NCBI RefSeq assembly: GCF_055900595.2
Contig: NZ_CM148325.1
Reading direction: 5' to 3' (one strand)
DNA length: 64,000 bases
Shown in pieces: positions 43,709 through 46,856 of this stretch (its first letter is position 1; every line of letters begins with the position of its first letter). Both the position numbers and the translations under genes were made by a program. The notes beneath the pieces are model-generated. The model was not told where the DNA came from. It saw nothing but the letters and a program-made list of their open reading frames with translations, and ran no database searches.

Positions 43709-44875
43709 GTGGCGGTCAGGACGCTGATAAACCTTAATGAGCGCTTTATTGATGCAGTATCGAATCCGGCAGGTATTATTGGTTTGTTTTTTGGTTTGCT
43801 TACCGTATTTGCAATTTTATTTCGTTTTTTTATTTACCGGAGACTCAGAAAGAAAACAGCAGCATTTGAGCAGGCCGTTTCAGAGCTGGTTCAGAGAGAA
43901 CGGGATTTTAATGAAACTGTCAATGCCGCTATAGCCCGGGGAATACGACAGGAAAAGGAGCAGCTTGCCAGACGTCGTGAGGAATTTCATACCACCAGAA
44001 AGAAGGCCGGCCGTGCAATGCAGCGGATTGTTGATTCTGCCTGGAAATTTAAGGCGAAGACTCTGCTGGCTGGTGTAACGATTAATAACTGGCAAAGCAA
44101 ATATGACCAGCTTCGTAAGGAAAGAGAGGCTTACGCTGCTGTCAGTGAGAAAATTGCCTTTCTTAACCTGGAAGATAATTCTGACTGGGAGAGTGTCAGG
44201 CAACAGTTTCTGGACAAAGTGGCATTGCTGGAAAAAGCGCAGGAAGAAAAGGAATATCAGGCAGAGCTTAAGCGTCAGATGCGTGAAGAAAAAGAGCGTC
44301 AGGATGAACTTGACCGGCGCCAGCGGGAAGCGGAAGAGGAAGAACGGCGTCTTGCTGAGCAGCAGAAACTGATTGAGGAGGCGCTGCGCGCAGCAGAAGG
44401 GGCTCACAGGGAGGAGTTAGAGAAACAACGCCTGGAGCTGGAACAGAAAATTCAGGAAGCGCATGCGCAGTATGAACGTGCTAAATCCATGGCTCAGCTT
44501 ACGAAACAGGGGCATGTTTATATCATTTCGAATATTGGTTCGTTTGGTGAGGATGTCTTTAAAATTGGCATGACCCGACGGCTGGAACCCATGGACAGGG
44601 TCAAAGAGTTAAGTGGTGCTTCTGTTCCGTTTGATTTTGATGTTCACGCCATGATTTCCTGTGATGATGCGCCCGCGCTGGAAAAAACACTTCATGACAG
44701 TCTGGAAAAATACCGCATCAACAGGATTAACCTGCGTAAAGAATTTTTCCGCGTGAAGCTTGAGAAAATCATTAATGAAGTGGAGCGTCACCACGGGCAG
44801 GTGGAATATGTGGCTGACCCGGCAGCACTGCAGTATCTGCAGAGTCTGGAGTGCGCGGAAAATGAAGCTGCCTGA
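43709..44875 (+). CDS. Membrane-anchored coiled-coil protein with C-terminal T5orf172/GIY-YIG-like domain (DUF4041-type architecture suspected)
   Basis: N-terminal TM helix GIIGLFFGLLTVFAILFRFFIY; long charged coiled coil; C-terminal GHVYIISNIGSFGEDVFKIGMTRRLEPMDRVKELS...FDFDVHAMI typical of T5orf172. Confidence 0.65.
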   Translation: MAVRTLINLNERFIDAVSNPAGIIGLFFGLLTVFAILFRFFIYRRLRKKTAAFEQAVSELVQRERDFNETVNAAIARGIRQEKEQLARRREEFHTTRKKAGRAMQRIVDSAWKFKAKTLLAGVTINNWQSKYDQLRKEREAYAAVSEKIAFLNLEDNSDWESVRQQFLDKVALLEKAQEEKEYQAELKRQMREEKERQDELDRRQREAEEEERRLAEQQKLIEEALRAAEGAHREELEKQRLELEQKIQEAHAQYERAKSMAQLTKQGHVYIISNIGSFGEDVFKIGMTRRLEPMDRVKELSGASVPFDFDVHAMISCDDAPALEKTLHDSLEKYRINRINLRKEFFRVKLEKIINEVERHHGQVEYVADPAALQYLQSLECAENEAA

Positions 44876-45068
44876 CAATCAGTGTTCTGATTTTATTCCG
44901 GCCGGATATAACAGAAGGGATATCTGCACATATCCTGCAGCATGGTTCACGGTATTCCGGTCATGTTAATGATTCTGTTTTTTTATTTCTGAATAAAATG
45001 ACACCCACGATATAACGTCGTGGGTGTCGGTGATGATTATTTTTTTGTTCACAGATTAAGGTGCGTTT

Positions 45069-46856
45069 ATGGCGAAACTGATAAATGTATCGGCGTCCAC
45101 TGAGGAGAGAATGACGTCCGGGGAGAGGAGGGTGGCTTCACGACTGGAGAGCTTTCTGAATGATGAGTGCCTTGTCTGGTACGATATTCCGGTGGGACGG
45201 AAAAACCGGCATCCGGATTTTGTCATTATTGACCCGGAAAACGGACTGCTGTTTCTGGAGGTCAAGGACTGGACGGTTTCCACGCTGCGCCAGGCAAATC
45301 AGGAGCAGGTCACGCTGGAAACCGACGGTCTTCTGAAATCAGAAATAAATCCGCTGGTACAGGTTCGTCGTTATGCCTGTGATACGGTTAATGCCTTACC
45401 TGCAGACCCGTGCTTACGGCAGAATGACGGTCAGTATAAGGGACGGCTGAACCTGGCCTGGGCGTATGGTGTGGTGTTTACCCGCATTACCCGTCAGCAA
45501 CTGAAGACACTGGCAGGGAATGATGAGAATGCGGTGGAAAAGATTTTTCCTTCAGCACAGACAATCTGCCAGGATGAAATGACTGCGTCTGTGCTACCGG
45601 AAGTGTTCCGGCAAAAAATTGCCGGGATGTTTATCACGGGATTCAGAACCCGGGTGACACCCCGGATGAGAGATATTCTGCGCGCCCATCTGTTTCCTGA
45701 AGTGACCGTGAAACAGAACTCACAAATCAAAATCATGGATATCCAGCAGGAGATTCTGGCCAGAAATATTGGTGACGGGCATCGTGTCATTCATGGTGTG
45801 GCCGGTTCCGGAAAAACCATGATTCTTTTGTTCCGTTGCCTTTATCTGGCTGAAACCACACCCGGAAAGATTCTGGTGTTGTGCTACAACATTACCCTGG
45901 CCAGTTATCTGCGGGAATGCATTGAGGCCAGAGGGCTGGCGTCACGGGTTACGGTATCTCATTTTCACAGCTGGTGTGCCTCAATGGCAAAACGCCACGG
46001 TATTCAGGTGACGGCAGACAGAGAAGAATATCCTGAGAAATGCTTCAGTGCACTGGAAGAGGCCGTGAACAGCGGAAAAATCACCCAAACCGGATATGAT
46101 GCTGTACTGGTGGATGAAGGGCATGATTTTGACAGTCGCTGGCTGGCCCTGATTGCCCGTCTGTTTGATAACGCATCCCGTTCACTGCTCCTGATGTACG
46201 ATGATGCCCAGTCCATTTACCGGCGGGAGCGGGCCCTGAACTTTTCTCTGGCCAGTGTGGGGATTCAGGCACAGGGACGCACTTCTGTCCTGCCGGTCAA
46301 TTATCGTAATCCGAAACGCATTCTGCACTTTGCTTATGCATTCTCCCGCGAGTATTTTGAAAAACATCAGAACCGTGAAATACCACTTGTTCAGCCACAG
46401 GCAGGCGGTGAAGAGGGTACAGAGCCGGAAATCCTGCATTGTGCTTCTGAACGTGATGAAGCCAGACAGGTTGCAGACTGGCTGGAGAAGCGCCATGCCC
46501 TGTGTGGTCACTGGAGTGATATGGCTGTGCTGTGTCCGACAGAGCGTTCAGCGAAACAATTGCAGGACGTTATGACACAACGCGGGGTGCCTTTTGCCAC
46601 CTGTTTTGACAGGGAAGGCAAGAAGGCATACTCGCGACGTAAGGATGTGGTGCATTTACTGACATATCAGAGCAGCAAGGGGCTGGAGTTCCCGTATGTG
46701 GCGGTTATCAATGCGTCTTTCGTTCACTCTGGTGCAGCGGATGAGTCTGAAGTGATTCCGGTGCTTTATGTGGCGTTCACCCGGGCAACCCGCGAATTAC
46801 TGGTGACCTGTTACCGTGAAAACAGTATCAGCCGCCACCTTGAGGATTTTGCATAA
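45069..46856 (+). CDS. NERD-domain nuclease fused to UvrD-like superfamily 1 helicase (Nhi-like candidate defence protein)
   Basis: N-terminal NERD-like region (RVASRLESFLNDECLVWYDIPVG...HPDFVIIDPENGLLFLEVKDW); helicase motifs GVAGSGKT, VLVDEGHDF, TYQSSKGLEFPYVAV. Confidence 0.8.
   Translation: MAKLINVSASTEERMTSGERRVASRLESFLNDECLVWYDIPVGRKNRHPDFVIIDPENGLLFLEVKDWTVSTLRQANQEQVTLETDGLLKSEINPLVQVRRYACDTVNALPADPCLRQNDGQYKGRLNLAWAYGVVFTRITRQQLKTLAGNDENAVEKIFPSAQTICQDEMTASVLPEVFRQKIAGMFITGFRTRVTPRMRDILRAHLFPEVTVKQNSQIKIMDIQQEILARNIGDGHRVIHGVAGSGKTMILLFRCLYLAETTPGKILVLCYNITLASYLRECIEARGLASRVTVSHFHSWCASMAKRHGIQVTADREEYPEKCFSALEEAVNSGKITQTGYDAVLVDEGHDFDSRWLALIARLFDNASRSLLLMYDDAQSIYRRERALNFSLASVGIQAQGRTSVLPVNYRNPKRILHFAYAFSREYFEKHQNREIPLVQPQAGGEEGTEPEILHCASERDEARQVADWLEKRHALCGHWSDMAVLCPTERSAKQLQDVMTQRGVPFATCFDREGKKAYSRRKDVVHLLTYQSSKGLEFPYVAVINASFVHSGAADESEVIPVLYVAFTRATRELLVTCYRENSISRHLEDFA

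Follow-up and report, generated by a model that had tools for sequence, protein, structure and literature searches.

We analysed two adjacent genes in a 64,000-nt stretch of contig NZ_CM148325.1 (assembly GCF_055900595.2), here called the window, whose positions serve as coordinates throughout. Gene 1 (43709..44875, + strand, 388 aa, GTG start) encodes a membrane-anchored protein with a T5orf172-type nuclease domain, and gene 2 (45069..46856, + strand, 595 aa) encodes a NERD domain fused to a UvrD-type helicase; a spacer of 193 bp separates them. The explanation that we favour, with confidence a little above even, is that they represent two independent single-gene DNA-targeting modules, which stand side by side in a variable slot of the Sci-1-type type VI secretion system (T6SS) cluster of Enterobacterales, bounded by tssE and tagA. 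An earlier annotation made from the sequence alone (the original prediction) had proposed a dedicated two-gene phage-defence module situated in a defence island. Its description of the parts has held: the two same-strand open reading frames (ORFs), the transmembrane (TM) anchor and the nuclease of gene 1, the domain fusion of gene 2 and the intact catalytic motifs and predicted folds of both proteins were all recovered in our analysis. The dedicated module itself was not, because in some genera the slot contains gene 1 without the helicase or the helicase without gene 1, and none of 80 distant helicase loci carries a relative of gene 1.

Separate occurrence of gene 1 and gene 2

The contents of the tssE–tagA interval were compared among the genera examined, and frequencies were counted in 5426 complete Escherichia coli genomes. 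Both genes occupy the interval in E. coli, Serratia, Citrobacter, Hafnia and Pectobacterium. Enterobacter bugandensis and Pantoea have gene 1 only, with tagA following 45–47 bp on, and Cedecea neteri has the helicase only, which makes three of the four possible combinations; checked across genomes, the pairing is thus not obligate. At least 80% of gene 1 was detected in 138 of the E. coli genomes and at least 80% of the helicase in 614, with both present in 137. A near-complete helicase is therefore present without gene 1 in approximately 477 genomes. At the loci examined, these helicases are intact by annotation, including one example in which the helicase follows an insertion sequence (IS) remnant. 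About 430 genomes contain no more than fragments of the helicase, typically through truncation by IS66, O157:H7 being an example. In these ~430 genomes, which include the main Shiga toxin-producing E. coli (STEC) lineages, the IS66-family element interrupts the gene after ~790 nt, and the remaining NERD-only fragment carries a gene annotation (entries H19–H29 and H98–H101; O157:H7, O145, O111, O103 and O45).

Outside Enterobacterales, the 8-kb surroundings of 80 species-level helicase loci (37–65% identity) were searched using phmmer (E ≤ 1e-3). A relative of gene 1 was found within 8 kb at none of the 80 loci, and clustering of the 80 neighbourhoods revealed no conserved helicase partner. The commonest neighbour family was present at 6 of the 80 loci, and the top families (up to 6 loci each) appear by eye to be unrelated genes, comprising sensor proteins, ParE, HipA-like proteins and DUF1016-like proteins. 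Because each gene occurs alone in the slot and the helicase elsewhere lacks gene 1 relatives, we conclude that the two genes assort independently.

These distributions make it quite unlikely that the two genes form a cooperative defence system, for example one in which the helicase processes DNA nicked by the membrane nuclease. Nuclease-plus-helicase pairings are common among defence systems, and the two genes lie adjacent on the same strand in five genera, with spacers of 60–193 bp. Furthermore, the helicase accompanies gene 1 in 137 of the 138 E. coli carriers, and the two genes are co-transcribed in enteroaggregative E. coli (EAEC) (10.1101/2025.02.08.637259). However, the co-occurring E. 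coli copies show 95–99% DNA identity, and their co-occurrence therefore reflects the inheritance of one island rather than an independent association. The solitary occurrences of either gene, the ~477 E. coli genomes with the helicase alone and the absence of a T5orf172 partner from all 80 distant loci also argue against cooperation, as does the fact that the SNIPE family, to which gene 1 is related, acts as a single gene (10.1101/2025.11.03.685801). In E. coli, moreover, a strong hairpin stands between the two genes. In the window, this terminator-like structure lies at 45000..45028 (+ strand) and has an 11-bp stem and a distant T-run; the 76-nt stretch around it has a folding energy of -27 kcal/mol (z = -4.9). 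The hairpin is present in E. coli strains 042 and MEW and absent from the 60–77 bp spacers of Serratia and Citrobacter. A scan for promoter and terminator consensus sequences found sites no more numerous than in shuffled sequence.

Gene 1, a divergent relative of SNIPE

The 388-aa protein carries a hydrophobic helix at aa 20–42, followed by a long helical region, and matches the Pfam families MUG113 (E = 9e-19) and T5orf172 (E = 8.8e-17) at aa 268–360. It also matches the two PD-Lambda-1 models of PADLOC with E-values of 5.5e-89 and 1.4e-83 (297 and 279 bits), with partial coverage of the models (positions 264–476 of 491 and 187–475 of 496; 43–58%). PD-lambda-1, from the screen of Vassallo et al. 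(2022), has been renamed SNIPE, and its mechanism has been described recently (bioRxiv 10.1101/2025.11.03.685801). According to that study, one gene suffices for defence. An N-terminal TM helix places the protein in the inner membrane, and this anchoring guards against self-cleavage; the central DUF4041 domain binds DNA and probably the phage tape-measure protein too, and its deletion abolishes defence; and phage DNA is cut by the C-terminal GIY-YIG nuclease while it is being injected. Two TM helices are present in 7% of SNIPE homologues (10.1101/2025.11.03.685801).

For comparison, we used a bona fide member of the SNIPE family encoded on a Klebsiella plasmid (locus L098, 1897–3453; 519 aa). 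This protein scores 682 bits against the PADLOC PD-Lambda-1 model over positions 1–495, whereas proteins of the gene 1 clade score 276–297 bits over part of it, and it contains Pfam DUF4041 at aa 220–271. A BLASTP alignment of the two proteins covers the last 170 aa alone (the linker helix and the nuclease), at 48% identity. Profile–profile alignment using hhalign gave a probability of 100% over gene 1 residues 137–406, and the full-length register puts AGVTINNWQSKYDQL of gene 1 opposite the DUF4041 core. Of the domains that the original prediction had named for Pfam and PADLOC searches, T5orf172, NERD and UvrD_C were found, whereas DUF4041 (PF13250) has no Pfam match in gene 1 even at E ≤ 10. 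Residues Y297, R316/R317, N367 and E371 (numbering of the 414-aa form described below) are invariant across the gene 1 clade and the bona fide SNIPE family, and all are present in the protein of the window; E371 would be the equivalent of SNIPE E414. No solved structure was matched by sequence. An AlphaFold2 model (pLDDT 73) contains N-terminal helices at aa 9–34 and from aa 46, a continuous helical stalk with short breaks at aa 148–153 and 178–185, and an alpha/beta nuclease domain from aa 294. The middle region of the model is all-helical, with no globular beta-containing domain.

Gene 1 therefore resembles SNIPE in its N-terminal membrane anchor, its long helical stalk and linker and its C-terminal GIY-YIG/T5orf172 nuclease, but it is ~100 aa shorter, has two TM helices in its repaired form and contains no detectable DUF4041. 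In addition, the gene 1 clade is fixed within the T6SS cluster, whereas SNIPE genes are scattered or mobile. On these sequence comparisons, gene 1 is assigned to a distinct, divergent SNIPE/PD-lambda-1 clade that has two TM helices and in which DUF4041 is at most vestigial. The product of such a gene would be tethered to the inner membrane and have a cytoplasmic helical stalk carrying the nuclease. By analogy with SNIPE, it may cleave foreign DNA during passage through the inner membrane, and the tether would keep the nuclease off the chromosome. Targeting is predicted to differ, with a short helical element in the place of the essential DUF4041 of SNIPE; because it lacks this domain, gene 1 would have to recognise its target otherwise than SNIPE does.

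In the window, the original prediction rightly described an open reading frame, but GTG 43709 is not the ancestral start of the gene. Gene 1 opens at ATG 43630, and a TGA is met after 7 codons. In an alignment of four orthologous 5′ ends (E. coli MEW, Serratia, Enterobacter and Citrobacter), the homopolymer at 43641..43648 (+ strand), which is A8 in the window, is A7 in all four. The early TGA is thus due to one extra A in the run, which causes a +1 frameshift after codon 6. Deletion of one A restores a 414-aa protein (43630..44875, + strand), the length of essentially every gene 1 orthologue in other genera (at least seven genera). The restored frame is the orthologue of EC042_4547 of EAEC strain 042, with 97.3% aa identity, and encodes a two-TM, coiled-coil, SNIPE-like GIY-YIG/T5orf172 nuclease. 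Its Kyte–Doolittle profile peaks at aa 10–30 and 46–68. Through the frameshift, 26 codons are lost from the start of the gene, among them those for TM helix 1 (aa 10–30), so the open remnant at 43709..44875 keeps the second peak only and consists of one TM helix, the helical stalk and the nuclease domain (nt 44510–44788). If made, its product would start at GTG 43709 and span the membrane once with the N-terminus out and the C-terminus in, which is the topology of SNIPE.

The A8 allele is also present in E. coli GmM062, in which PGAP annotates the 388-aa protein. Other E. coli assemblies contain 5′-truncated gene 1 calls of 386, 388, 398 and 402 aa (P0121–P0123, P0127 and P0131), and those of 386, 398 and 402 aa start inside or just past TM helix 1. 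These varied calls indicate that 5′ lesions recur in gene 1. The poly-A run in codons 4–7 could be a slippage hotspot that allows phase variation, or the lesions could merely be recurrent decay.

Such lesions raise the question of whether gene 1 is a pseudogene in this strain and the pair a decaying relic, now without function irrespective of what it did ancestrally. In addition to the frameshift, this explanation could draw on the replacement of the T6SS core by another locus and on the mutated core of a regulatory element in gene 2 (both described below), on an internal stop in gene 1 of strain H22, which by synteny is closest to the window, and on the truncated copies in many E. coli genomes. 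Nevertheless, the 388-aa frame is fully open and keeps every nuclease residue, a Shine–Dalgarno-like GGGGGA motif lies 6–11 nt upstream of GTG 43709, and the corresponding protein is called by PGAP in GmM062. Gene 2 and tagA are intact in the window, and the A8 run itself may be a homopolymer error of the assembly. We therefore regard a relic without function as unlikely.

Gene 2, a NERD–UvrD helicase

Gene 2 is the orthologue of EC042_4548, to which its protein is 96.9% identical in amino acid sequence. Pfam identified NERD at aa 17–108 (E = 5e-10) and UvrD-helicase, AAA_19, UvrD_C and UvrD_C_2 across aa 226–583, within a superfamily 1 (SF1) UvrD-type helicase region of aa ~221–583. The family is large, comprising 565 representative clusters at E ≤ 1e-30. 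Across 50 aligned homologues, the PD-(D/E)xK triad (D50, E64 and K66), the Walker A motif (G243–T250) and D349/E350, Q381, R413 and T571/R572 vary little or not at all, and gene 2 has every one of them. Among solved structures, only the generic helicases PcrA, UvrD and Rep were matched. The start of the gene differs from that in RefSeq, where PGAP places it at Met15 (45111) and names the 581-aa product a 3′-5′ exonuclease. We prefer 45069 because the MAKLI N-terminus encoded from this upstream ATG is conserved across genera and in the wider helicase family, and the true length is probably 595 aa.

The best PADLOC model for gene 2 was PDLC01087 (C3a187, 'NERD+UvrD'; E = 2.5e-139), which aligned over positions 1–556 of 559 with aa 1–594. 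Cluster 187 of Shah et al. 2018 (PMC6546367) corresponds to C3a187, an unvalidated candidate accessory of type III CRISPR-Cas systems that was delimited on only 3 occurrences beside such cassettes. Although this full-length match places gene 2 in the same family, its setting is different, with no cas neighbours in the window, where CDI (contact-dependent inhibition) genes, the ydcA-like gene, tagA and Old surround it, or at the other loci examined. At 10 other helicase loci, none of the 40 nearest neighbours matches a core cas gene model; one of them matches the generic 'CAS-associated' PD_DExK model and has a stronger match to PDC-S02.

The resemblance to Nhi that had been noted earlier is one of architecture and of single-gene behaviour. 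Nhi (nuclease-helicase immunity) was reportedly described from Staphylococcus by Bari and colleagues in 2022, and gene 2 likewise joins a nuclease domain and an SF1 helicase in one stand-alone polypeptide with no fixed partner. However, the helicase core is UvrD/PcrA-like, and the PADLOC Nhi match (E = 5.1e-5, 20 bits) is confined to the P-loop at aa 224–254. Therefore, membership in Nhi was rejected, and gene 2 is not an Nhi orthologue. A Gabija system formed by gene 2 and the nearby OLD nuclease gene was also rejected. Although gene 2 shows weak GajB matches (3e-21) and the OLD nuclease matches GajA down to 7e-26, the latter is best matched by the stand-alone 'Old' model (1.5e-78). The two genes are 1.9 kb apart, with orf101 and tagA between them, and the OLD gene is variable at the site: H22, MEW and 042 lack it at this position but retain the helicase. 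The NERD RNase ZwsA, which acts against RNA phages, likewise differs from gene 2 in architecture.

The likeliest mode of action for gene 2 would be one without a partner, in the manner of Nhi or other helicase–nuclease fusions: powered by ATP, the helicase would translocate on foreign or aberrant DNA or unwind it and so feed it to the PD-(D/E)xK nuclease.

The type VI secretion cluster and its orphaned tail

The Sci-1 cluster of EAEC 042 ends with tssE, a ydcA-like gene, a GIY-YIG gene (414 aa), the NERD helicase gene, a 101-aa ORF and tagA. Locus tags counted from known anchors identify gene 1 as EC042_4547 and gene 2 as EC042_4548, both of which have been called 'accessory genes', with no function given to either (10.1101/2025.02.08.637259). 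The window has the ydcA-like gene, gene 1, gene 2, orf101 and tagA in the same order, the first four being 88–97% identical to their 042 counterparts. The ydcA-like gene (43073..43474, + strand, 133 aa) is a conserved left neighbour of gene 1 in T6SS clusters and is 88% identical in amino acid sequence to the gene after tssE in EAEC 042. Its matches to NCBIfam PRK10040/YdcA-type models are below the curated cut-off, and the equivalent gene of Enterobacter, Citrobacter and Pantoea carries Pfam YdcA. To the right of gene 2, orf101 (46922..47227, + strand, 101 aa) is the orthologue of EC042_4549, with 95% identity. This ORF has no PADLOC or NCBIfam match and is E. coli-specific, lying between the helicase gene and tagA and being absent in the other genera examined. 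The tagA-like gene (47270..48643, + strand) marks the 3′ end of the T6SS cluster. Its protein shows TssA N-terminal similarity (NCBIfam, 2e-23, below the cut-off), and its orthologues carry Pfam ImpA_N and VasL. The gene is one intact 457-aa ORF in the window, whereas RefSeq annotates three fragments (ImpA_N, a 'POTRA' piece and VasL) in EAEC 042 (L093, 34071–35438), H22 (L012, 26679–28040) and MEW (L001, 15682–17046).

The window differs from EAEC 042 in that the tssB–tssE core is missing (tblastn with the 042 core proteins detected none of tssB to tssE), gene 1 is frameshifted and the core of the RfaH element ops2, treated below, is mutated. Because the core is absent and the flanking genes are conserved, the window holds an orphaned T6SS accessory tail consisting of ydcA, gene 1, gene 2, orf101 and tagA. 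The original placement of the pair in a defence island thus stands in part: an OLD nuclease gene (Old; 48785–50491) and a type I restriction-modification operon (56877–62774; REase_I, MTase_I and Specificity_I) are indeed nearby, but the pair itself belongs to this tail. Between these two loci, a GC-poor region at 51508–55454 contains mid-sized ORFs, of which one has a weak BrxP-like match (1.8e-7) and the others have no PADLOC match.

A CDI locus occupies 35986–43050, downstream of a shared DUF4222 gene. It comprises a cdiB-like gene, a long cdiA, an immunity gene and VENN/orphan toxin fragments at ~42496–43050, and it sits where EAEC 042 and MEW carry the T6SS core tssB–tssE. The close relative H22 likewise has cdiB/cdiA/cdiI annotated in place of the core. 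A swap of one interbacterial weapon for another seems to have taken place at this chromosomal position; in this strain, the CDI locus would have taken the place of the core and left the accessory tail orphaned.

Orthologues of gene 1 (76–80% identity) were found in six other genera, and in each the gene lies at the 3′ end of a T6SS cluster. The genes there run tssM, tssA, tssF, tssG, tssJ, tssE, then (in some genera) a 156-aa ORF and/or ydcA, followed by the T5orf172 gene, the NERD–UvrD gene where present and the tagA-like gene, and the same arrangement is found on a Citrobacter plasmid. In species other than E. coli, the stop codon of the helicase gene overlaps with the start of tagA by 8–44 nt (L003, 11119–11132; L009, 11136–11149; L095, 9119–9132; L096, 9142–9149; L013, 9784–9827), which suggests translational coupling of the two genes and ties the helicase closer to tagA than to gene 1.

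In EAEC, the RfaH element ops2 (core GGTAGNNT) has been placed between EC042_4547 and EC042_4548; a reporter after EC042_4548 needs ops1, ops2 and rfaH, and the ops2 mutant has lowered sheath assembly (10.1101/2025.02.08.637259). The sole GGTAGNNT nearby in 042 is GGTAGCTT (L093, 31921–31928), which lies 20 nt inside the RefSeq helicase coding sequence and 62 nt into the longer conserved ORF, at codons 21–23 of the 595-aa frame. A location of the ops2 core in the spacer between the two genes was therefore rejected in favour of one within the helicase reading frame. At the same position in the window (45131..45138, + strand), GGTAGCTT is replaced by GGTGGCTT, a synonymous change. The ops2 motif is thus lost, and RfaH control has probably been lost with it.

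The close association with the cluster suggests that both genes could be T6SS accessories, dealing with DNA or phage from killed neighbours or, for the membrane protein, working with TagA or the membrane complex. All nine gene 1 clade loci examined, from seven genera and a plasmid, lie between tssE and tagA; the helicase overlaps tagA outside E. coli; ops2 is located at the 5′ end of the helicase gene, and transcription downstream depends on ops1, ops2 and rfaH, with sheath assembly lowered in the ops2 mutant (10.1101/2025.02.08.637259). The tail also decays where the core has been lost, as seen in the frameshift of the window, the internal stop of H22, a truncation by IS1 in STEC388 and the IS66-truncated helicase of O157 and other STEC. 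However, reduced tagA expression accounts for the ops2 phenotype, and T6SS clusters that are alike in other respects differ in whether they contain either gene. Both proteins are nucleic-acid enzymes with no known T6SS role. The helicase family is found overwhelmingly outside T6SS clusters (1 of the 80 loci was in one), and the variable defence hotspot just 3′ of tagA raises the possibility that the slot merely gathers defence genes. Thus, a T6SS role for both genes appears doubtful.

The genes 3′ of tagA differ among genomes: Old is present in the window, a KAP NTPase and Qat in H22 (L012, 28278–33965), Kiwa and Hachiman in Citrobacter koseri (L009, 12518–17245), Kiwa in Hafnia (L095, 10501–12660) and AIPR and Psu in Pantoea (L097, 9584–12304). 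The end of the T6SS cluster looks like an integration hotspot for defence genes.

Several findings weigh against the explanation that we favour, namely two independent DNA-targeting modules. For gene 1, the middle region on its own showed no significant hhalign match to DUF4041 (E = 0.096, probability 0.6%), and Pfam DUF4041 was detected in none of the 120 closest relatives within its clade, compared with all 120 for the bona fide SNIPE member; the confidence of the AlphaFold2 model is only moderate. The clade is confined to T6SS clusters at the nine loci examined rather than to mobile defence islands, and the co-transcription of both genes with the T6SS accessory operon under RfaH/ops control in EAEC allows for a T6SS-related role (10.1101/2025.02.08.637259). 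In E. coli, gene 1 is nearly always accompanied by the helicase. For gene 2, PADLOC defence genes are 4 of the 40 nearest neighbours, in 3 of the 10 helicase-homologue loci, so that defence-island support is weak, and an enrichment of defence genes around helicase homologues was dropped from the argument. The anti-phage roles of the gene 1 clade and of the gene 2 family are both predicted.

To existing annotation pipelines, gene 1 would be PD-Lambda-1, and the helicase family has been catalogued. The new point is that a two-TM SNIPE clade lacking DUF4041 is fixed in the Sci-1 T6SS operon of Enterobacterales, with or without a NERD–UvrD helicase. A likely activity is thereby proposed for EC042_4547 and EC042_4548, T6SS 'accessory genes' so far without one. 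In the literature searched, no paper connects these points, and none links T5orf172 or NERD helicases with type VI secretion. Caution is also needed in annotation: PADLOC-type tools will give the label PD-Lambda-1 to gene 1 and that of a CRISPR accessory candidate to gene 2, and the adjacency of the two genes may be over-read as a two-gene system.

SNIPE tells self from non-self by membrane location rather than by sequence, and the gene 1 clade provides a natural test of the purpose of DUF4041 and of its replacement by another adapter. A speculative extension, to which we give a small chance, is that the DUF4041-less, two-TM SNIPE-like nuclease, often with the NERD–UvrD helicase, is a conserved, co-transcribed (RfaH/ops-controlled) component of Sci-1-type T6SSs across Enterobacterales that is functionally tied to T6SS activity. 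If this is true, TagA or the TssJLM complex could stand in for DUF4041 as a localisation or recognition adapter, or the nuclease could be switched on together with the T6SS and degrade phage or foreign DNA that lysed neighbours release. A single operon would then connect an offensive secretion machine with a nuclease that blocks entry.

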